Shown here piece by piece: positions 13,969 to 25,930 of a DNA stretch of 64,000 nt; the stretch's first letter is position 1; each line of letters opens with the position of its first letter. The DNA comes from Bacteroidales bacterium (GTDB taxonomy: Bacteria > Bacteroidota > Bacteroidia > Bacteroidales > P3). A model generated the notes under the pieces. The model saw only the letters and a program-made list of their open reading frames with translations. It ran no database searches and was not told the origin of the DNA. The stretch is from the NCBI GenBank assembly GCA_017960605.1, contig JAGCYV010000034.1, forward strand, positions 7,192-71,191, written 5' to 3'. Made by a program: the position numbers and the translations under genes.

Positions 13969-14721
13969 TTATTTCGTTTCATTCTTGGTACAGACTACCT
14001 GATTGTGGTATTTGAGGCTGATGCGGGAGTAGGTGTCCCATCCGGCCCGTGGCATACCTTTTCGATAGAAAGTCAGCAGGTTGGAGAACTTCTCGTCGAG
14101 GTTCTCCACATGGCCCAGTTCCACCACATGGTTACCCAACTTAGGCACCATCATCACGTCTCGGTCACTCTCAATGAATATTTGGTCAATCAGACATCCA
14201 TATTTCTCCTCTCTGTCGAGGAAAGAGGCCAACTGCAGCAGGTCAATCATCTGAGCGTTCAGGCTGTCGGGGCGCAGCGGTTCCGTGAAGTCACCGCCTG
14301 CCACCAACACATTGCAACTTCCTGTGGCCGGCATCAAAGATCCTTCTGCATCGAAATAAAGCTCCTTGGCATTGTAGTAAAGCCGCGCAATGGGTCGGCG
14401 CTGACGGGCCCGTACCACCACCTTGCCGCTGACGCTCATGGAAGCCTGCACATCCTTCAGATAAGGTACCCTCGCGGCAGCCTCGGCCACCTCCTGACGG
14501 TCAACCCGACCCACCTGCTGCTGCATCAAGGCAGGAATGGCAGTCAGAATGCTGTCGCGCACCGTCTGTCCATTGACAAGCTCGGGCACACGGCCATAGC
14601 GGATATTCACCTCAATGCCACGCACCGTGGCCCGCGAGCGAGTAACATTGGCCACCACCACAAGCACCGCCAGTGCGACAGCACCCAGAAGGATGATCAG
14701 TATTTTGACAGGTCGTTTCAT
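13969..14721 (-). CDS. ftsQ: cell division protein FtsQ
   Basis: 250 aa with a single N-terminal TM helix (ILIILLGAVALAVLVVVA). It sits between murC and ftsA, and its ATG overlaps the murC stop (ATGA). Confidence 0.75.
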   Translation of the reverse strand: MKRPVKILIILLGAVALAVLVVVANVTRSRATVRGIEVNIRYGRVPELVNGQTVRDSILTAIPALMQQQVGRVDRQEVAEAAARVPYLKDVQASMSVSGKVVVRARQRRPIARLYYNAKELYFDAEGSLMPATGSCNVLVAGGDFTEPLRPDSLNAQMIDLLQLASFLDREEKYGCLIDQIFIESDRDVMMVPKLGNHVVELGHVENLDEKFSNLLTFYRKGMPRAGWDTYSRISLKYHNQVVCTKNETK

Positions 14722-16127
14722 AGCACTTGTTCTCTTAACACATTCTCCAACCGCGGCACCAGCCGGTCAATATCGCCGGCACCGAGGGTAACCACCACAT
14801 CCGGACACAGGGCGGGCACCAGTTCGAGCACCTGGTCGGGGGTGCAAAGGTACTTCGACATGCCCGGCACCTTACGCAACACCATACTCGAAGTCACCCC
14901 GGCAATAGGTTTCTCCCGAGCAGGATAGATGGGCATCATCACAAGTTCATCGAGAGTACCCAGCACCTCGGCAAATCCGTCGGCTAGATCGCGTGTGCGG
15001 GTGTAGAGGTGCGGCTGGAAAATACCCACCACCCGTTTGCCGGGATAGAGGTAACGGATAGACTCCAGCGTGGAACGTATCTCCTGTGGATGGTGCGCGT
15101 AATCGTCGATATAGACCAACTCCTTCTCGCGAATACGGTAATCGAAACGACGACGCACTCCCGTAAAACTTTTCAGGCCGCTGCGCAACTGGTACTGATC
15201 CAGGCCGCAACTGAGCGCCACCGCCGAAGCCACCACGGCGTTCTCGACATTGTAGAGCGCCGTGCCGTCGAGTTCAAGATCGAAGAACACACCGTCGGGC
15301 GTGCGCAGGTCAAAGAAGAGGTTGCCGTTGTAAGTGCGCACGTTGATGGCATAGTAATCAGCCTCGATGCCATGGGCGGTATAGGTGGAGTATTGGGCAT
15401 TCAGCGTTAAGTGTTTAGTCTCCCCATGATGGTGGTGCTCATGGCCGTATTCGACAAACTCCTCGCCGTCGAGGGTACGGAAGATACCCTCCTTCAGGAA
15501 CAGGTGCCCGTCGGGGTCGGTCTGGTTAGCAAACTGGAGATAGGCCTCCATCATGTGCTCGTGGTCGCCATAGATGTCCAAGTGGTCGGGGTCTGTGGCG
15601 GTGATGACAGTCATGTGGGGATGCAGTTGCAGGAAGGAACGGTCGTACTCATCGGCCTCCACCACCATATATTCACTCTTGTGGTCGATATGCAGGTTGC
15701 TTCCGAAGTTCTTGCTGATGCCGCCCAGAAAGGCCGAACACCCGCACGGAGCCTTGCTCAGCAGGTGGGAGATCATGGCGGAGGTTGTGGTCTTGCCGTG
15801 CGTACCTGCCACTGCAATGCATTTCTTACCATGGGTCAGCTCGCCGAGTACCTGCGAACGCTTCTCCATCTTCACACCTCGCTTTTTCAGCTCCTGAAAC
15901 TCATTCAACTCTTGAGGCACAGCAGGAGTATAGACCACCAGGTCGATGCCATCGGGCAGCAAGTCGGGGCGATCCTCGTAGTGGATACCGATGCCTTCGG
16001 CCTCGAGTTCAGCCGTAAGGGGCGACGGCGTTCGGTCGTAGCCGCTCACCGTGTCGCCACGCTGGTGGAAGAAGCGCGCCAAAGCGCTCATGCCGATGCC
16101 TCCTATGCCGAGAAAGTAATATCTCAT
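14718..16127 (-). CDS. murC: UDP-N-acetylmuramate--L-alanine ligase
   Basis: 469 aa. FLGIGGIGMSALA N-terminus and the Mur ligase P-loop GTHGKTTT. Confidence 0.93.
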   Translation of the reverse strand: MRYYFLGIGGIGMSALARFFHQRGDTVSGYDRTPSPLTAELEAEGIGIHYEDRPDLLPDGIDLVVYTPAVPQELNEFQELKKRGVKMEKRSQVLGELTHGKKCIAVAGTHGKTTTSAMISHLLSKAPCGCSAFLGGISKNFGSNLHIDHKSEYMVVEADEYDRSFLQLHPHMTVITATDPDHLDIYGDHEHMMEAYLQFANQTDPDGHLFLKEGIFRTLDGEEFVEYGHEHHHHGETKHLTLNAQYSTYTAHGIEADYYAINVRTYNGNLFFDLRTPDGVFFDLELDGTALYNVENAVVASAVALSCGLDQYQLRSGLKSFTGVRRRFDYRIREKELVYIDDYAHHPQEIRSTLESIRYLYPGKRVVGIFQPHLYTRTRDLADGFAEVLGTLDELVMMPIYPAREKPIAGVTSSMVLRKVPGMSKYLCTPDQVLELVPALCPDVVVTLGAGDIDRLVPRLENVLREQVL

Positions 16128-17356: not shown

Positions 17357-18538
17357 TTACGTTGTTGTATCAGAGGGGGTGTCTTGTATCTGCTTGGCTT
17401 CCGCCTCCTTATTATACACGTCGGCCGCAACCGACTGAATGATACCCAATCCGCACCCCATGAAGAGATAGGCCGTACCTCCATAGGAGATGAAAGGCAG
17501 CGTCTGTCCCGTGACAGGCAGCACACCCACGGCAACGCACATATTCACAAGGGCTTGGAGATAAATCACCGTACCGAGACCCGCCACCGTCAAGGCCCCG
17601 AAGCGGCCCTTGCAGCGCCAGGCCAGACGGACACAGCGGAAGTAGAGGATGCCATAGAGGGCAAAGACGATGATGCCGCCCAACATGCCTGTTTCCTCGA
17701 TGATGACAGCATAGATGAAGTCGTTATGCGCCTGCGTCATCAGACGGGCGTGAACCGTGTTTCCAATGCCAGTTCCTAACACACCACCACGGGCGATGGC
17801 CATGCGAGACATATTCTCCTGCGTCAGTTCGTCGGGGTTGGGGTTAATCCACGAATAGACACGGTGGCCCCAAGTGTCTTGACGCTCGAACATCTGCTCT
17901 TGAGTCTGGCCGGTGGTCAGCGTGCGCTCATAGCGGAAGTAGTTGATAGCCAAAAATGCCACTACTGCTACCAAGCCTATCAGCAGCAGACGCCACCACC
18001 ACTTGCGGTTCACGCCACCGAAATACATCATCACATAGCAGGCCAGGAATATCAATGCGGCGGTGGAGAAGTTGGTCGGGAACACCAGCGCCACCACCAG
18101 CACCATGTATATCATCAGTTGCAGGAAGGTCCCTATCTCGTTCAGATGGTCTTTCTTCAATGCCAACATGCGAGCGATGAACACTATCAAGACTATCTTG
18201 GCAATCTCGGAGGGCTGGAACTGGCCGATGACAGGAATCCTGATCCAGCGGCCGAACGCCAACGCCACCACCAGCAATACCAGAGCCACCCAATAACCCA
18301 GCAAGGCAAACCGCGAGAAGAACCTGTAATTGACCCTCGATAGGAGGATGACGGCCACATAGGTGACCACCACAATGATAAGATGGCGTAGGAAGAGCGA
18401 TGTGGGGGTCTTGGTGGAGAAGAAGGAATAGGCATATAGCCCTATGGAGCTATAGACTTCAACCAACGAGAAGATGCTGAGCAGCAGAAACACCACCCAG
18501 ATTACCTTATCTCCCCTGAACAACCTTCCCGTTTTCAT
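17357..18538 (-). CDS. ftsW: FtsW/RodA/SpoVE family peptidoglycan glycosyltransferase
   Basis: 393 aa, polytopic membrane protein, in the expected dcw position. Its ATG overlaps the stop of the upstream ORF (ATGA). Confidence 0.88.
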   Translation of the reverse strand: MKTGRLFRGDKVIWVVFLLLSIFSLVEVYSSIGLYAYSFFSTKTPTSLFLRHLIIVVVTYVAVILLSRVNYRFFSRFALLGYWVALVLLVVALAFGRWIRIPVIGQFQPSEIAKIVLIVFIARMLALKKDHLNEIGTFLQLMIYMVLVVALVFPTNFSTAALIFLACYVMMYFGGVNRKWWWRLLLIGLVAVVAFLAINYFRYERTLTTGQTQEQMFERQDTWGHRVYSWINPNPDELTQENMSRMAIARGGVLGTGIGNTVHARLMTQAHNDFIYAVIIEETGMLGGIIVFALYGILYFRCVRLAWRCKGRFGALTVAGLGTVIYLQALVNMCVAVGVLPVTGQTLPFISYGGTAYLFMGCGLGIIQSVAADVYNKEAEAKQIQDTPSDTTT

Positions 18539-19077
18539 AGTTCATTGACCTCGTGACGGAACATAGCACCCTGTTCCTGTGTACTATGGCCGTTGTAGCA
18601 TGCCGGAGAATAGACAACCCTCACTTCGTCTTCGGACTCATAGTGATAGGCACGCTGCAGGGCTTCGGCCATGGTGGAGCAGCAGACGATGGAAGGAATG
18701 ATGCCCCGGAAAGTGTAATGCATGCGGTCTTCGACATCGCCGACCACAAGGAGCATCCTCACCTTACGCAACGCCGGAGGCACGAGACGGCTGTAGTCGG
18801 CCGTCTGGTCGTTGGCGTCGGCTATCCAGACAAGTCCGCCTTGCAGGGAGTCGAGCGAATACCACGAAGCGTTGATGGTACGTGCGGCGGCATCGTTGAT
18901 GTACTCGCGTCCACGGACACGGGCCACAAACTCCAGACGATAGCGAGTGTCTTCCAAGCGGTTGAAGCATGCCCTGAGACTGGCGTCACGCATGCTCTTC
19001 AAACGCTGCACGTCGATGCCCGCCAGCCCGGGATGGATTCTGTCACGGCCCTGTTTAGCCAATGTTTCAATAGTCAT
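18535..19077 (-). CDS. MurD C-terminal-domain-only protein (truncated homolog of UDP-N-acetylmuramoylalanine--D-glutamate ligase)
   Basis: 180 aa in the murD slot. YRLEFVARVRGREYINDAAARTIN...LLVVGDVED...VVYSPAC aligns by eye to MurD domain 3 (E. coli HRFEVV..GVRWINDSKATN...LLLGGDGK...LLSPACAS). There is no Rossmann domain and no GxxGKT P-loop domain. Only 24 nt separate it from the mraY stop, so no room exists for the missing ~265 codons. Confidence 0.7.
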   Translation of the reverse strand: MTIETLAKQGRDRIHPGLAGIDVQRLKSMRDASLRACFNRLEDTRYRLEFVARVRGREYINDAAARTINASWYSLDSLQGGLVWIADANDQTADYSRLVPPALRKVRMLLVVGDVEDRMHYTFRGIIPSIVCCSTMAEALQRAYHYESEDEVRVVYSPACYNGHSTQEQGAMFRHEVNEL

Positions 19078-19101
19078 TATTCAGTCTGTATTATTTTGTT
19101 T

Positions 19102-20280
19102 CTATCTGATTTTCAAAGTCGAGAGGGTAAAGACCGCCAACAGGATGGCGATGATGACAAAACGCATGACCACCTTCTCCTCGGCCACGCCCTTCTTCTG
19201 ATAATGATGATGTAAAGGCGACATGAGGAAGGGGCGCTTCTCCACCGGCACCGGCACTCCGACGGGGAGTTTGTGCTTGCGGCGGTAGCGTTTGCAGCCC
19301 GCGGTCTGGATAATCACCGAGAGGTCTTCGACAAGATAGATGCCGCAGAGCAACGGAAGGAGTAACTCCTTACGAATCAGCACTGCAAAAACAGCAATAA
19401 TGCCGCCGATGGCCAGCGAACCCGTGTCGCCCATAAAGATTTCAGCAGGGTGGGTGTTGTACCATAGGAAGCCCAGCGTGGCTCCCACAAAGGCGGTGCT
19501 GAAGACAGCCAGTTCACCGATATTGGGCAGGTAAATGATATTCAAGTATCCGGACATGATGATGTTGCCGCTCACCCATGCCAGCAGTGCCAGAGCACCG
19601 CCATTGACAGCCGCCACACCAGTGGCGATACCGTCGATGCCGTCGGTGAGGTTCGAAGCGTTGCTAACAGCGGTGACAATGAAAATGACAATTAGGACAA
19701 AGACAACCCAAGCATAGTCGGCGGCCCACGGACCCATCCACGACACCAGACACGTGTAGTCAAATTCGTTGTTCTTCACAAAGGGGATAGTGGTCTTCAT
19801 GGGGTCGGTGATGTCGGGATGGAAGGTGATGAGCAGTCCCACCGCCAGGCCCAACAATATTTGGCCAAAGACCTTATACTTGCCTGGCAGACCAGCCTTG
19901 CCACGGGTCTTTTTCAGATAGTCGTCGAGGAAGCCCACCATGCCCATCCACACCGTGGTGCCAATCATAATCAGCACATAGATATTGTCCAACTTGGCAA
20001 AGAGCAGTGTTGGGATGACAATGGCCGCCAGAATGAGCAGACCGCCCATCGTGGGTGTCTTGGCTTTGCGTTCGGCACCTTCAAGTCCCAACTCCATACG
20101 CACCTCGTCCATTATTCCCAGCCTGTTCTGAATCCAGCGGATGAACGGTTTTCCCAGCACCAGCATGATGAATAACGAGGTGATGATGCTGGCCGCCGAA
20201 CGGAACGAGATGTACTGAAAGACACCCGCGCCAGGCACTCCCAGACTATTATGCAACCAATCAAACAGATAATATAACAT
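19102..20280 (-). CDS. mraY: phospho-N-acetylmuramoyl-pentapeptide-transferase
   Basis: 392 aa. Motifs GFLDDYLK, NLTDGIDGIA and MGDTGSLAIGG. Confidence 0.95.
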   Translation of the reverse strand: MLYYLFDWLHNSLGVPGAGVFQYISFRSAASIITSLFIMLVLGKPFIRWIQNRLGIMDEVRMELGLEGAERKAKTPTMGGLLILAAIVIPTLLFAKLDNIYVLIMIGTTVWMGMVGFLDDYLKKTRGKAGLPGKYKVFGQILLGLAVGLLITFHPDITDPMKTTIPFVKNNEFDYTCLVSWMGPWAADYAWVVFVLIVIFIVTAVSNASNLTDGIDGIATGVAAVNGGALALLAWVSGNIIMSGYLNIIYLPNIGELAVFSTAFVGATLGFLWYNTHPAEIFMGDTGSLAIGGIIAVFAVLIRKELLLPLLCGIYLVEDLSVIIQTAGCKRYRRKHKLPVGVPVPVEKRPFLMSPLHHHYQKKGVAEEKVVMRFVIIAILLAVFTLSTLKIR

Positions 20281-20292
20281 AACTTTAAAACT

Positions 20293-21747
20293 CTATTTCT
20301 CTATTACGTTCAGTTCTTTCTCCAGTTCCTCCACATCGTCGAAGTGACTGCGCACCCCATTCACTTCCTGATATTTCTCATGGCCTTTACCTGCCACCAG
20401 CACAATGTCGCCCTCTTTAGCCATCATGCAGGCTGTGCGGATGGCCTGACGACGGTCGGTGATGCGCACCGTGTGACTCAACTGCTCGGCAGTAAGACCG
20501 GCCTCCATCTCGTCAAGAATGGCATCGGGATTCTCCGTGCGGGGATTGTCGCTGGTAAGTACCAGCTTATCACTTCCTTCCGAAGCAATTTTGGCCATCT
20601 CTGGACGTTTGGTGCGGTCGCGATCACCACCGCAACCTACTACGGTGATGAGTTGCTGGGTGGGACGACGGATGCCATCAATGGTAGAGATGACATTCTG
20701 CAAAGCATCTGGGGTATGGGCATAATCGACGATGGCGGTAATTCCTCGGCCATTGACATACTGGAATCTTCCGGGAGCAGCCTCCAACATACTCAGCAGC
20801 CGCAATACTTCGTCCTTCTCCACCCCGCAAAGCACGGCGGCGGCATAGATGGCAGTCAGATTGTAGGCATTGAAACGACCCACCAATCGGCACCACAACT
20901 CGCTGCCGTTAATGGAAAGGTGCATACCCTCGAAAGTATTCTCTATCAGACGGCTACGGAAATCAGCATTGTACTGCAACCCATAGGTATAAACCTTGGC
21001 GCGGGTGTTCTGCACCATCACGCGTCCGTTCTTGTCATCCACATTTACCAACGCCCACGCTTCCTTGGAAAGACCGTCGAAGAACCCCTTCTTGGCAGCG
21101 ATGTAGCTGGCCATAGTCTTGTGGAAGTCCAGGTGGTCATGGGTAATATTGCTAAAGATGGCGCCGGCAAACTCCACACCCGCAATGCGATGCTGCACCA
21201 CTGCATGACTGCTCACTTCCATGAACGCATATTGGCAGCCGGCATCCACCATACGGCGTAGCAGTTGATTGAGTTCCAAAGCGTCGGGGGTGGTATGGCC
21301 CGTAGGCAGTTCCTCCTCGTCAATCTTATTGACGATGGTGGAGATTAGTCCCACATGGAAGCCCAACATACGGAACATCCGGTGCAGGAGGGTAACGGTG
21401 GTGGTCTTGCCGTTGGTGCCGGTGATACCGATGAGTTTTATCTGCTCCGACGGATGACCGTAGAAGTTGGCCGCCATCAGTCCAAGGGCGACACTGCTGT
21501 CAGGCACCTTCACGTAGGTCACGCCTTGTGCCAATGTGCCGGGCAACTCCTCGCACACCACGGCCACAGCCCCTTTCTCCACGGACGACGCTATGTAGTT
21601 ATGGCCATCGACCTTCGTGCCGCGCTGAGCGACAAAGAGCGTACCCGGCTCGACCCCTCGTGAATCAAATTGAAGAGCTTTCACCTCCACCTGTTCCGAG
21701 CCGGTCACCTCAGCCGCTATTCCTTTTAATATATCTTTCAGCTTCAT
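20293..21747 (-). CDS. murE: UDP-N-acetylmuramoyl-L-alanyl-D-glutamate--2,6-diaminopimelate ligase
   Basis: 484 aa. P-loop GITGTNGKTT and a DNPR motif (TSDNPRTE). Confidence 0.93.
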   Translation of the reverse strand: MKLKDILKGIAAEVTGSEQVEVKALQFDSRGVEPGTLFVAQRGTKVDGHNYIASSVEKGAVAVVCEELPGTLAQGVTYVKVPDSSVALGLMAANFYGHPSEQIKLIGITGTNGKTTTVTLLHRMFRMLGFHVGLISTIVNKIDEEELPTGHTTPDALELNQLLRRMVDAGCQYAFMEVSSHAVVQHRIAGVEFAGAIFSNITHDHLDFHKTMASYIAAKKGFFDGLSKEAWALVNVDDKNGRVMVQNTRAKVYTYGLQYNADFRSRLIENTFEGMHLSINGSELWCRLVGRFNAYNLTAIYAAAVLCGVEKDEVLRLLSMLEAAPGRFQYVNGRGITAIVDYAHTPDALQNVISTIDGIRRPTQQLITVVGCGGDRDRTKRPEMAKIASEGSDKLVLTSDNPRTENPDAILDEMEAGLTAEQLSHTVRITDRRQAIRTACMMAKEGDIVLVAGKGHEKYQEVNGVRSHFDDVEELEKELNVIEK

Positions 21748-21755
21748 CTGTAACT

Positions 21756-24041
21756 TTATCTAAGAGTCAATTCCACCCGTGTTCCATGCTTCGCGTTGGT
21801 ACCAGCCTTGGGCGTTTGCGACAGCACGCGTCCGTAGCCATTCACCTTTGCACGGTAACCCATCTCCTGTAGCAACTCCACGGCATCCTTGGCTGTCATT
21901 CCGTTGCAGTTGGGAATCCGTCCGTGGGCAGGTTCATAAGGATAATACTGCGCTGGAGTGCTGTCAGTCGCTTCCCGATAGACCACCCAGCGAGCCATCG
22001 TGTCGGCAGTACGGTACGGCTGACGCAAGGTCTTGTAAAGTTTTCGCATCTGGCTTTGGTCGGCACGCTCCGCCGTGGGACGTTGCAGAGCCATCGCACT
22101 GTCTTCTTCCAACTTCGGCCACACCGATTTCACCGCCCCATCGCTCAATCTCTTATCCACGGCCACCACACAGTCGCTGATGGCTTTGAACACCGTGGCT
22201 GCCTGACGGCCATAGTACGGGATGTTTTCCAACACCACCAGACAGGTGTAACGCGGATTCTCCGAGGGGAAGAAACCCGCAAAGGAGGCATTGTATCGCT
22301 TGACATTGGCATAACTGTGTACTGCCGTACCAGTCTTTCCAGCAATGCCGTAGGTGTTATTCTTGATATTGTTGCCCGTACCGTGCTCCACCACACCCTC
22401 CAGCATGGTACGCATCATGCGGGCACTCTCGCGGCTACACATCCTCGGATTGAGCACGACAGGTTTGTTTTCAATCAATCGGTCACCGTCCAACACACCT
22501 TTGCAGAATATCGGCTTCACCATACGTCCATCGGCGGCCAAGCCATTATAGAAGGTGATGAGTTGCAGTGCACTGACACGGGTGGAATAACCGTAACAGA
22601 AATTCAGAAAGTCTCGGTTAGAAGCATGCAGGTTGTTGATACGCGAGTCGTACTCACGGGCTTTTACGTCGGGATGCAGCTTCTCGTAGGGGAACATGCG
22701 CTCCACCAAATGGCGTAGCGTATCGCGTCGGTCGGCATAGAGACGCCAGCCCAAGTCACTCATACCCACGTTCGACGATTGCTCGATAACCTCTCGTACA
22801 TTCAGCGAGTCGCGACCTGCCAACGTGTGGTCGTCCTTGATTTCACCATACTTTCCACCAAAGTTCTTGTAACCCGAGGCAAGCATCATGGCGGTGTCAA
22901 TCTTGATGGAGGGATCGTTGAGCATGGCAGTGAGAATGACGGTCTTAAAGGTAGAACCAGGCTCATATACGTCACTCACTGCCACATTGCGGTCACGTAC
23001 CTCCAGATAGTCACGCAAGGAAGTGTCCACAGCCAAATTAGCACACGCCAGCACATAGCCCGTCTGCATCTCCATCAGTATGGCACATCCTGCCGAGCCG
23101 CCGTATTGCCGCAACGCCCTCCGCAACTCGCTCTCGGCAATGTCCTGATAGCGGGTGTCAATGGTGGAGACAATGCTGCGTCCATTCACCTTGCCCTGCA
23201 ACACGATGGTATCCACCTTGTCCAGGTCGGTACGCACCGGCACCTCTTTCCTCACATGCTGTTCCTCTGGCAGCCAGATACCCTTGGTCAGGCGGCGGCA
23301 GCGGAACAACCCGTCCTGGCCACGCAAGATACTGTCGTATGCCCCTTCCAAACCCGTGTAAGTAGAACTCTCACGTTGGTTCTGGAATCCAATGGTGTTG
23401 CCAGCCATATTGCCGTAAATATGGGCACGCTCTTGATGCACCACACTCTGGCCATCGACCTGACGCACCACCCCTCGACTCCACCCCGGCAGATGGCAGA
23501 TCTGCAGCCACACTGAGTAGGGCACATGACGCTCTACCAAAAAGCAGCGGCGAGGCTTCTCTTTGACGCGCTCGCCCGCGAGGCGGTCACGGTAATATTG
23601 AGCCGTCTTCTGTGGCATCGCCTCCGACAACAGAGTGCACATACTGTCGAGATAAGTATAGAAATTGGTATCAGTGATGGGACCGCTCTCAATGGGCAGG
23701 CCTTTCCTGTCATACTTCGGATGGCCGTACTCGTCAAGTTCCACAACATTGTGAAGATCCAAGTACAGGTCGCATTCGGTGACGTTGGTAGCCAGTATCT
23801 TGCCGTCACTGGAGTAAATATTGCCCCTTCGGGCAGGGTCTGTCCGAACATCGGCCTCGCGCTTCTCGCCTCGGGTCCTCCATTCGTCGCCGTGCACCCA
23901 TTGTATATTGATGATGCCGGCCACAATAGCCACTCCCACACCCAAAGTGAGCAGTAGGTAGAGCACCGTCGTGCCGACCTTCATTCTCTTATCATTATTA
24001 TTATGTTCCTGTTCTTTCAATTTACGACTTTCAAATTTCAA
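21756..24041 (-). CDS. ftsI: penicillin-binding protein (FtsI-type transpeptidase with a C-terminal PASTA-like domain)
   Basis: 761 aa from a TTG at 24041. The first ATG is at 23984 (MKVGTTVLYLLLTLGV, TM helix). Transpeptidase motifs STFK (EPGSTFKTV), SSN (EQSSNVG) and KTGT (AGKTGTA). The C-terminus NGMTAKDAVELLQEMGYRAKVNGYGRVLSQTP is PASTA-like. Confidence 0.88.
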   Translation of the reverse strand: MKFESRKLKEQEHNNNDKRMKVGTTVLYLLLTLGVGVAIVAGIINIQWVHGDEWRTRGEKREADVRTDPARRGNIYSSDGKILATNVTECDLYLDLHNVVELDEYGHPKYDRKGLPIESGPITDTNFYTYLDSMCTLLSEAMPQKTAQYYRDRLAGERVKEKPRRCFLVERHVPYSVWLQICHLPGWSRGVVRQVDGQSVVHQERAHIYGNMAGNTIGFQNQRESSTYTGLEGAYDSILRGQDGLFRCRRLTKGIWLPEEQHVRKEVPVRTDLDKVDTIVLQGKVNGRSIVSTIDTRYQDIAESELRRALRQYGGSAGCAILMEMQTGYVLACANLAVDTSLRDYLEVRDRNVAVSDVYEPGSTFKTVILTAMLNDPSIKIDTAMMLASGYKNFGGKYGEIKDDHTLAGRDSLNVREVIEQSSNVGMSDLGWRLYADRRDTLRHLVERMFPYEKLHPDVKAREYDSRINNLHASNRDFLNFCYGYSTRVSALQLITFYNGLAADGRMVKPIFCKGVLDGDRLIENKPVVLNPRMCSRESARMMRTMLEGVVEHGTGNNIKNNTYGIAGKTGTAVHSYANVKRYNASFAGFFPSENPRYTCLVVLENIPYYGRQAATVFKAISDCVVAVDKRLSDGAVKSVWPKLEEDSAMALQRPTAERADQSQMRKLYKTLRQPYRTADTMARWVVYREATDSTPAQYYPYEPAHGRIPNCNGMTAKDAVELLQEMGYRAKVNGYGRVLSQTPKAGTNAKHGTRVELTLR

Positions 24042-24525: not shown

Positions 24526-25470
24526 TTAGCACTTAACACTCATTTTCTCCCCTACCCTCAACATCGCACTGCGGGCACGGCTGTTCCGAGACACCTCCTC
24601 CTCCGAGGCGGTGCATTTCTTCACCTGGCGCATCGGCGACAACGGGTTGCCGTAGAAATCCTTCTCCACCTTGCCCTCGAAGTTGCCGCTCCGCATGAAG
24701 TTCTTCACCAGACGGTCTTCCAACGAGTGGTAGCTGATTACCACCAGACGGCCACCATCCTCCATCAACTCGGCAGCCTGCTGCAACATCACTTTCAAGG
24801 CCTCCAACTCTCCGTTCACCTCGATACGCAAAGCCTGGAAAAGCATCGCCAAATACTTGTTTTCCATTCCACGAGGCAGATGCTTCGACACGGCCGCCTT
24901 CAGGTCGCCTGTGGTCACTATCTCTGCTTCCGCTCTCCACTTCACTATGGCACGGGCCATCTGCCTAGCATTCGGCAACTCGCCGTAGAGACGCAGCAAC
25001 CGGCACAATTCCTCCTCGTCGCTGTTGTTCACCAATTCGCGAGCCGACAGCGACGCCTGTCGGTTCATACGCATATCCAACTCGCCGTCGAGACGGGTTG
25101 AAAAACCCCGCTCAGCCGTGTCAAACTGATGGCTGCTCACCCCCAGGTCGGCCAGCACACCATCCACCCTCCGCACCCCGTGCAACCGCAGGAAAGCCTT
25201 CAAATGGCTGAAATTCTCATTGATGAACGTAAACGAAGGCCCACCACCGACGCATTCACGCATCAACGCACTTGCACACTCTGCCGCGTCCCCGTCCTGG
25301 TCGAAGGCATAAAGCCTGCCCCCGGAACCGAGCGCCTTGAGGATGGCACGCGAATGGCCGCCGCCGCCGAAGGTCACATCCACATAGATGCCTTCAGGAC
25401 GTATGGCGAGACCCTCGACGGCCTCGGCAAGCATCACCGGTGTATGGTACTCATTGGTCATTCGTCGCAA
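24526..25470 (-). CDS. rsmH: 16S rRNA (cytosine1402-N4)-methyltransferase
   Basis: 314 aa. YHTPVML and DVTFGGGGHS motifs. An alternative ATG lies 9 nt downstream. Confidence 0.93.
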   Translation of the reverse strand: MRRMTNEYHTPVMLAEAVEGLAIRPEGIYVDVTFGGGGHSRAILKALGSGGRLYAFDQDGDAAECASALMRECVGGGPSFTFINENFSHLKAFLRLHGVRRVDGVLADLGVSSHQFDTAERGFSTRLDGELDMRMNRQASLSARELVNNSDEEELCRLLRLYGELPNARQMARAIVKWRAEAEIVTTGDLKAAVSKHLPRGMENKYLAMLFQALRIEVNGELEALKVMLQQAAELMEDGGRLVVISYHSLEDRLVKNFMRSGNFEGKVEKDFYGNPLSPMRQVKKCTASEEEVSRNSRARSAMLRVGEKMSVKC

Positions 25471-25930
25471 CCGACCCCTCTACGCGAGGATGCGCCCCGA
25501 GCAACTCCTCCGCACGAAGTGCAAAGTCGCCACCCGAAGAGTTCATCTTGTCGTAGGCCTCCCGGCCCCAGAGCTCTATGAACTTACCAGTCGATTGCAA
25601 CACAATCTCTTTCGCCTTGGCTATCACATGCTTCTGCTCGGCAGGCACCAGCAGGCGGTCGTTCGAGTCCAGCTCGATGATGTTGCCTTCGGTGAGTTTG
25701 CGCAGCAGCTCGCGGTCGGTGCGGCGATAGGGATTCAGTTTTTCCTGGAGTTTCTCCACTTCCTCCCTGAAACTGGCATAGGTCCACAACTCCAAACACT
25801 CGGCATAGACACTCTGGCGGATCACGAAACGCCCGTCCTCCGTCTCCAACTGCCTCTTCAAGGCAATCGGAAACTTGAAACGGCCGTTCGAATCGACCTT
25901 ACAGTACTCTTTACCAAGTATTAACGCCAT
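25451..25930 (-). CDS. mraZ: division/cell wall cluster transcriptional regulator MraZ
   Basis: 159 aa with two SpoVT/AbrB-like halves (KVDSNGRFKFP and ELDSNDRLLVP). It is the first gene of the dcw cluster. Confidence 0.9.
   Translation of the reverse strand: MALILGKEYCKVDSNGRFKFPIALKRQLETEDGRFVIRQSVYAECLELWTYASFREEVEKLQEKLNPYRRTDRELLRKLTEGNIIELDSNDRLLVPAEQKHVIAKAKEIVLQSTGKFIELWGREAYDKMNSSGGDFALRAEELLGAHPRVEGSVATNDQ

Follow-up and report, generated by a model that had tools for sequence, protein, structure and literature searches.

Which gene product occupies the murD position of a bacterial division and cell-wall (dcw) gene cluster when the open reading frame (ORF) found there encodes only 180 amino acids (aa)? 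The question is raised by a stretch of 64,000 nucleotides (nt) of contig JAGCYV010000034.1 (assembly GCA_017960605.1, a Bacteroidales bacterium of GTDB family P3), hereafter called the window, in which a 543-nt ORF lies between mraY and ftsW. We find that the encoded protein, hereafter the short protein, corresponds to the complete D-glutamate (D-Glu)-binding domain of MurD, preceded by the hinge and by the last strand-helix of the central domain, and that its gene is under strong purifying selection. On balance it appears to be a stand-alone, catalytically inactive paralog of the MurD C-terminal domain that is accessory to the division and cell-wall machinery, with the real MurD probably encoded elsewhere. 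The gene and its boundaries are as follows.

18535..19077, minus strand: stand-alone gene resembling the MurD C-terminal domain; 180 aa plus stop codon, ATG start; match to the C-terminal part of TIGR01087 only; MurD fold by Foldseek; ratio of nonsynonymous to synonymous substitution rates (dN/dS) 0.12
18940..19077, minus strand: N-terminal tail of the short protein, residues 1-46, delimited by alignment with full-length MurD and by the predicted local distance difference test (pLDDT)
18538..18939, minus strand: Mur ligase C-terminal domain fold of the short protein, residues 47-180, from AlphaFold2 secondary structure and pLDDT, Foldseek and the residue map
18535..18538, minus strand: ATGA tetranucleotide in which the TGA stop of the short gene overlaps the ATG start of ftsW (18538-18536), seen in the sequence and read as translational coupling
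19078..19101, minus strand: A-rich 24-nt spacer from mraY to the short gene, too small for further MurD coding sequence

The ORF, its mraY and ftsW flanks, the 24-nt gap and the ATGA overlap had all been named in an original prediction made from the letters of the window, and the sequence confirms each of them.

Homology and predicted fold of the short protein

The NCBIfam model for murD, TIGR01087, matches the short protein with E = 1.1e-16, at profile positions 297-419 of 441 only, and the score of 61 bits does not reach the equivalog cut-off of 211.95 bits. MurD chains in the PDB (3lk7, 7sy9, 8dp2 and 4buc) match from MurD residue ~267 to the end (E ~1e-4). The Mur ligase C-terminal domain model PF02875 is covered at positions 2-127 of 127 with 19.8 bits (E = 0.0015), which is below its gathering threshold of 28.4; a PF02875 match is precomputed for several close homologs.

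An AlphaFold2 model built with 33 homologs as input has a six-stranded, Rossmann-like Mur ligase C-domain fold in residues 47-180. When this model was compared with the PDB using Foldseek, the 33 best matches were all MurD, and the best-superposed of these gave a template-modelling score (normalized to the query) of ~0.6 and a root-mean-square deviation of 2.3-3 Å over ~141-146 residues. The family profile, the PDB chains and the predicted structure thus bear out the earlier alignment by eye of the ORF to the end of domain 2 and to domain 3 of MurD. The tail (residues 1-46) shows homology to the hinge and to the strand-helix unit that closes the MurD central domain. Its pLDDT is below 50 in the monomer model, and its conservation equals or exceeds that of the folded domain (mean top-residue frequency 0.70 versus 0.63 in 74 sequences). 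The reported domain limits in MurD are 94-298 and 299-437 (PMC3527612).

The short protein therefore has in common with MurD its sequence and fold homology to residues ~262-437, its position in the dcw cluster, and equivalents of R302 and D317. It differs in being ~40% of the length, without the UDP-binding domain and without a P-loop or central domain. The absence of the N-terminal Rossmann domain and of the P-loop from the 180-aa product is as originally described, and only MurC and MurE supply such regions in the window.

Loss of ligand-binding residues

We mapped the short protein onto an E. coli MurD sequence that fits the published positions K115, N268, N271, R302, D317, K319, T321, K348, S415 and F422. 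The correspondence, in E. coli numbering, is as follows.

H267: D12 in the short protein
N268: R13
N271: P16
H301: Y46
R302: R47, retained
D317: D62, retained
K319: A64
T321: R66
K348: Q91
S415-F422 segment: YNGH, with a three-residue deletion

Seven MurD residues that contact ATP or D-Glu are thus changed, together with the S415-F422 segment, and the HN..N ATP motif, which falls in the tail, reads DR..P. To our knowledge N268 and N271 are invariant across the Mur ligase superfamily. Among the residues that characterize MurD (T321, K348, S415 and F422 with N268, N271, R302 and D317), only R302 and D317 are retained, and their equivalents are invariant throughout the family of short proteins. 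The loop matching GGxDKG is the most variable part of the short protein. In MurD the D-Glu carboxylates are held by K348, T321, S415 and F422 (PMC3527612), and R302 is a hinge residue that contacts the ADP phosphate (PMC4816537).

The original reading of these motifs held in part. Substrate-binding residues are indeed replaced, whereas the insertion that it implied is not there: INDSKATNVN aligns with INDAAARTIN at equal length, and GGVDKGNDY corresponds to ADANDQTADY, with Gln at the Lys348 position. A protein without a P-loop, without the UDP-binding domain and with its ligand residues replaced would have no ligase activity on its own. Judged from its sequence, the short protein is predicted not to act as a D-Glu ligase by itself.

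Conservation in close relatives

A search of 5.8 billion proteins returned 252 relatives of the short protein. Among the 120 matches listed, lengths are 146-181 aa (nearly all 172-181 aa) and identities 63-94%. All named relatives come from metagenome-assembled genomes (MAGs) of uncultured Bacteroidales, and they are annotated as 'hypothetical protein' by NCBI and as MurD by JGI. Synteny is identical in three independent ENA assemblies.

We also compared related dcw clusters, as had been suggested with the original prediction, by scanning GTDB species representatives and keeping the best 80 loci. When the window and locus L001 are counted with these, at least 75 loci have an intact, ATG-started ORF of 176-180 aa. 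The sources of these 75 are 'Bacteroidales bacterium' MAGs from rumen and gut (RUG, RGIG and UBA series), 'bacterium P3', Candidatus Colimorpha pelethequi and HGM05376; we take 'bacterium P3' to be a BS11 genome and the namesake of GTDB family P3. The short gene lies directly upstream of ftsW in 73 of the 75 loci. In 20 of these 73 the stop codon runs into the ftsW start as ATGA, most of the others having a gap of 1-30 nt, and the spacer between mraY and the short gene ranges from 1 to 144 nt.

Selection was estimated as median Nei-Gojobori dN/dS over the 27 closer genomes (159 pairs for the short gene). The value for the short gene, 0.121, lies among those of its neighbours: mraY 0.072, murC 0.096, murE 0.107, murG 0.109, ftsW 0.16 and ftsI 0.20.

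Two independent Colimorpha-type MAGs have a different arrangement (L029:1769-2308 and L030:2253-2792), in which the short gene stands between ftsL and ftsI, and mraY abuts ftsW. Here the short gene is acting as an autonomous gene, yet it remains among division genes.

Short genes next to an intact murD

In nine loci from five lineages (L128/L136, L159, L141/L143, L133/L172 and L018/L099) the order is murD, then a stand-alone MurD-C ORF, then ftsW, and mraY precedes murD wherever the contig covers the upstream sequence. The murD genes that were scored (L128, L159, L133 and L172) reach 388-411 bits with TIGR01087, well over the cut-off; murD is cut short in L018, L143 and L136, lies off the contig in L099 and was left unscored in L141. 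The neighbouring MurD-C ORFs encode proteins of 157-182 aa whose match to TIGR01087, at 103-167 bits, is confined to the C-terminal part of the model. Their identity to the C-domain of the adjacent murD is only 32-46%, and the tandem duplications are therefore old.

What these paralogs share with the window protein is the C-terminal TIGR01087 match and the place directly upstream of ftsW; the L128-type paralog shares the 182-aa architecture including the tail as well. They differ from it in having a canonical murD alongside and in keeping more of the ligand-binding motifs, and they are only 22-35% identical to it. The 182-aa paralogs of L128 (6446-6994) and L136 (6130-6678) keep EHRLE, NDSKATN and the Lys348 equivalent and have lost GKHN..N; they may represent a stage midway from a catalytic domain to the degenerate form. 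Because some short forms coexist with an intact murD, we regard them as a paralog family and not simply as broken murD genes.

In a distance tree the L128 paralog groups with the proteins of L096 and L098, which have the short gene only, while those of L007, L011 and L091 fall among canonical C-domains and the window's family sits on a long-branch cluster with other degenerate forms. A single ancient truncation behind all short forms was considered and rejected as unproven, given that L007, L011 and L091 group with canonical C-domains and the L128 paralog with L096 and L098.

A wider family of stand-alone MurD C-domains

A profile search of 1.84 billion representatives revealed many more clusters, ~178-184 aa in size, whose members can be aligned over their full length at 28-45% identity. 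These distant members were counted only where the genomic context had been verified. The order mraY, short gene, ftsW was confirmed in each of the following.

L004: GC content 40%, 'MTLEQLAKQGRRT' type
L005/L006: GC 57%, mouse gut
L007/L008: GC 33%
L011 (GC 36%) and L091
L096-L098
L108 (GC 32%) and L173 (GC 37%)

These lineages are as distant from each other as from Flavobacteriia (MurE identity 51-58%). Their short proteins form a graded series: all catalytic motifs are kept in L011 and L091, some are lost in L007 and L096-98, and most are lost in L004, L005 and the window's family. We propose to define the family as complete ORFs of ~157-182 aa that have their own start, cover only the C-terminal third of MurD and lie in a dcw cluster, normally directly upstream of ftsW, all of which applies to the window protein.

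Some database entries resemble members of this family. P0361/L009, P0560/L010 and P0481/L017 were considered as intermediates and rejected, being frameshift or assembly splits of an ordinary murD whose N-terminal ORF is still adjacent. In L009 the N-terminal part of murD is fused to mraY, and in L010 ftsI and murG are fragmented too. Split genes of this kind can mimic a truncated MurD in protein databases. Likewise, many entries of 182 aa or ~281 aa that carry canonical motifs and lie on short contigs were set aside as probable 5'-truncated ordinary genes called from the first Met; calling a 5'-cut murD from the first conserved internal Met is a likely cause of inflated counts of apparent short MurD proteins.

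A murD fragment was also seen on a viral contig. IMG/VR contig IMGVR_UViG_3300032087_001466 (L012:281-985), which carries terminase and portal genes, contains a piece of the murD central domain (residues ~126-264) that forms an in-frame fusion with a phage ORF. The murD piece stops one or two residues short of the conserved Met at which the stand-alone ORFs start, and this boundary may be a hotspot of recombination or integration.

Gene neighbourhood in the window

The minus strand of the window carries a complete dcw cluster of the Bacteroidales type, in the order mraZ, rsmH, ftsL, ftsI, murE, mraY, short ORF, ftsW, murG, murC, ftsQ, ftsA, ftsZ. The short gene, between mraY and ftsW, thus occupies the position expected of murD. 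The neighbours that bear on its interpretation are the following.

25451-25930, minus strand: mraZ, member of the dcw cluster
21756-24041, minus strand: ftsI, member of the dcw cluster
20293..21747, minus strand: murE, meso-diaminopimelate (meso-DAP) type, whose substrate is the MurD product; NF001126, 618 bits, above the cut-off
19102..20280, minus strand: mraY, upstream neighbour; TIGR00445, 281 bits, above the cut-off
17357..18538, minus strand: ftsW, downstream neighbour, translationally coupled; best profile TIGR02614 (ftsW) at 236 bits, rodA 210 bits, neither reaching its cut-off
14718..16127, minus strand: murC, whose product is the MurD substrate; TIGR01082, 380.6 bits against a cut-off of 335.1

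As both profile scores for 17357..18538 are below their cut-offs, the name ftsW is given because of the position in the dcw cluster. The base composition of the short gene is like that of its neighbours, and no terminator-like site was found in the junction of mraY with the short gene or in that of the short gene with ftsW. The short gene is transcribed together with the dcw operon.

Two further features were observed. An antisense ORF of 220 aa (18553-19215, plus strand) lies opposite the short gene and the end of mraY; the GC-rich coding strand probably gives rise to it as a mirror-frame artefact. The MurC of the window (14718-16127, minus strand) has a His-rich insertion, EYGHEHHHHGETKH, at residues ~225-240.

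The place of MurD activity

Canonical MurC and a MurE of the meso-DAP type are both present, and the pathway therefore requires MurD. Searches of the 64-kb window with phmmer (MurC and MurE as queries) and with tblastn (nine MurD N-terminal regions) found no MurD N-terminal or central domain and matched only MurC and MurE. We infer that in these bacteria a catalytic, full-length MurD is encoded outside the dcw cluster. It is improbable, in our estimate, that the BS11/P3-type Bacteroidales and the other lineages with the short gene only do without any conventional full-length MurD, relying on a two-piece enzyme or on another ligase that uses the short protein as a specificity or docking subunit.

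Possible functions and alternative explanations

As in pseudoenzyme paralogs of metabolic enzymes, the fold of the short protein is kept, catalytic residues are lost, and selection is purifying; we know of no described pseudoenzyme paralog of a Mur ligase, and our searches of the literature yielded none. The conservation of a tail that is unstructured in the model, together with fidelity to the neighbourhood of ftsW, ftsL and ftsI, suggests a role in protein binding. The short protein, its gene translationally coupled to ftsW, would act through protein-protein contacts, with the tail and the surface of the C-domain serving as an accessory, adaptor or regulatory subunit. It might in this way tie cytoplasmic precursor synthesis (the Mur ligases, MraY and MurG) to the FtsW/FtsI/FtsL division synthase. 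The simplest model would be one of subfunctionalisation, in which the MurD C-domain has two roles, D-Glu binding and docking on the membrane or division machinery, and the paralog keeps the docking. A precedent for a physical link is provided by natural MurD-FtsW fusion proteins and by Mur ligase complexes (PMC10214165). What those fusions have in common with the present case is that the C-terminal end of MurD is linked to FtsW, here through translational coupling and strict adjacency. However, they are full-length enzymes, whereas the short protein is a separate domain, predicted to be inactive. The original suggestion that a non-catalytic domain has been retained for scaffolding or regulation agrees with the purifying selection, the loss of ligand residues and the relocation in Colimorpha; its term 'remnant' proved too narrow for a wide family of which some members stand beside an intact murD.

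A collapse in assembly or a deletion confined to this genome, which had been offered as the alternative, has only the unusual length of the gene to recommend it. This structure recurs across independent assemblies (ENA, Logan, JGI and NCBI) and across at least 75 GTDB species representatives, and true murD splits (L009, L010 and L017) look different in that the N-terminal ORF is still there. The three ENA assemblies and the 75 loci, in which the gene is always intact, refute this explanation, and we regard its probability as negligible. A functionless remnant, kept as a spacer or for the translational coupling and expression of ftsW, would account for the ATGA overlap and for the lost catalytic residues. 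However, a dN/dS of 0.12 reflects selection on the amino-acid sequence, all 75 genomes have the ORF intact, the coupling overlap is found in only 20 of 73 loci, and the gene persists in Colimorpha after moving away from ftsW. This explanation is largely refuted and very improbable, and the earlier argument that an intact ORF speaks against recent decay is upheld by the same selection and integrity.

Several observations weigh against an inactive accessory paralog. L011 and L091, which have the short gene only, retain every catalytic motif including GKHN..N, and this fits a working fragment of an enzyme better than a scaffold. No MurD N-terminal or central domain was detected by tblastn within 10 kb of the short gene in ~90 loci, and a full-length MurD was found for no genome with the short gene only, the searches covering the window and 10 kb around the short gene. 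The window's family is joined to the tandem paralogs by a rough distance tree with long branches, and the scaffold role is a putative one. Part of this evidence would favour a split MurD, in which the short protein is the C-terminal piece, a separate N-terminal piece (domain 1 and most of domain 2) is encoded elsewhere, the tail completes the central domain, and the assembled pair attaches the second stem-peptide residue. The tail is just the last strand-helix that domain 2 would otherwise lack, matches or exceeds the folded domain in conservation and is disordered in the monomer model; R302 and D317 equivalents are invariant family-wide; L011 and L091 keep their motifs despite an overall divergence of 18-33%, no different in rate from that of their neighbours; and the searches of the window and of ~90 other loci showed no full-length MurD near any short-only locus. 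We nevertheless consider a split enzyme unlikely: the N268 and N271 equivalents and the D-Glu contacts K319, T321, K348 and S415-F422 are replaced in the window's family, those same searches disclosed no gene for an N-terminal fragment, and NDSKAT and the Lys persist in tandem paralogs that have an intact MurD next to them, so that retained motifs are no proof of catalysis. The domain might instead sense a ligand, binding nucleotide, D-Glu or UDP-N-acetylmuramoyl-peptide and modulating FtsW or MraY according to precursor supply. The Rossmann-like fold and the kept equivalents of D317 and of R302, the residue that touches the ADP phosphate in MurD, are consistent with this, as are NDSKAT and the Lys348 equivalent in less degenerate relatives and co-expression with ftsW. 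However, all known D-Glu-holding residues are altered in the window's family and the GGxDKG-equivalent loop is the most variable, which makes a sensor of this kind doubtful.

Implications

MurD is a drug target and a marker gene for bacterial genome phylogeny and quality control, and it is regarded as a universal, essential, single-polypeptide enzyme. Our literature searches turned up no account of a MurD C-domain protein that is short or stands alone, and a stand-alone MurD-C family beside ftsW is apparently undescribed. Automated annotation is misleading here, as the same protein is called MurD in one resource (JGI) and hypothetical in another (NCBI). Across an abundant group of rumen and gut Bacteroidales, the expected place of murD is taken by a MurD C-domain protein that is under selection and predicted to be inactive, and many other Bacteroidota carry a MurD-C protein in addition to murD. 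In these proteins a Mur ligase domain would have become a pseudoenzyme in nature, and they raise the testable question of where MurD activity resides in these genomes. The family may be an overlooked component that links precursor synthesis to the FtsW division synthase.

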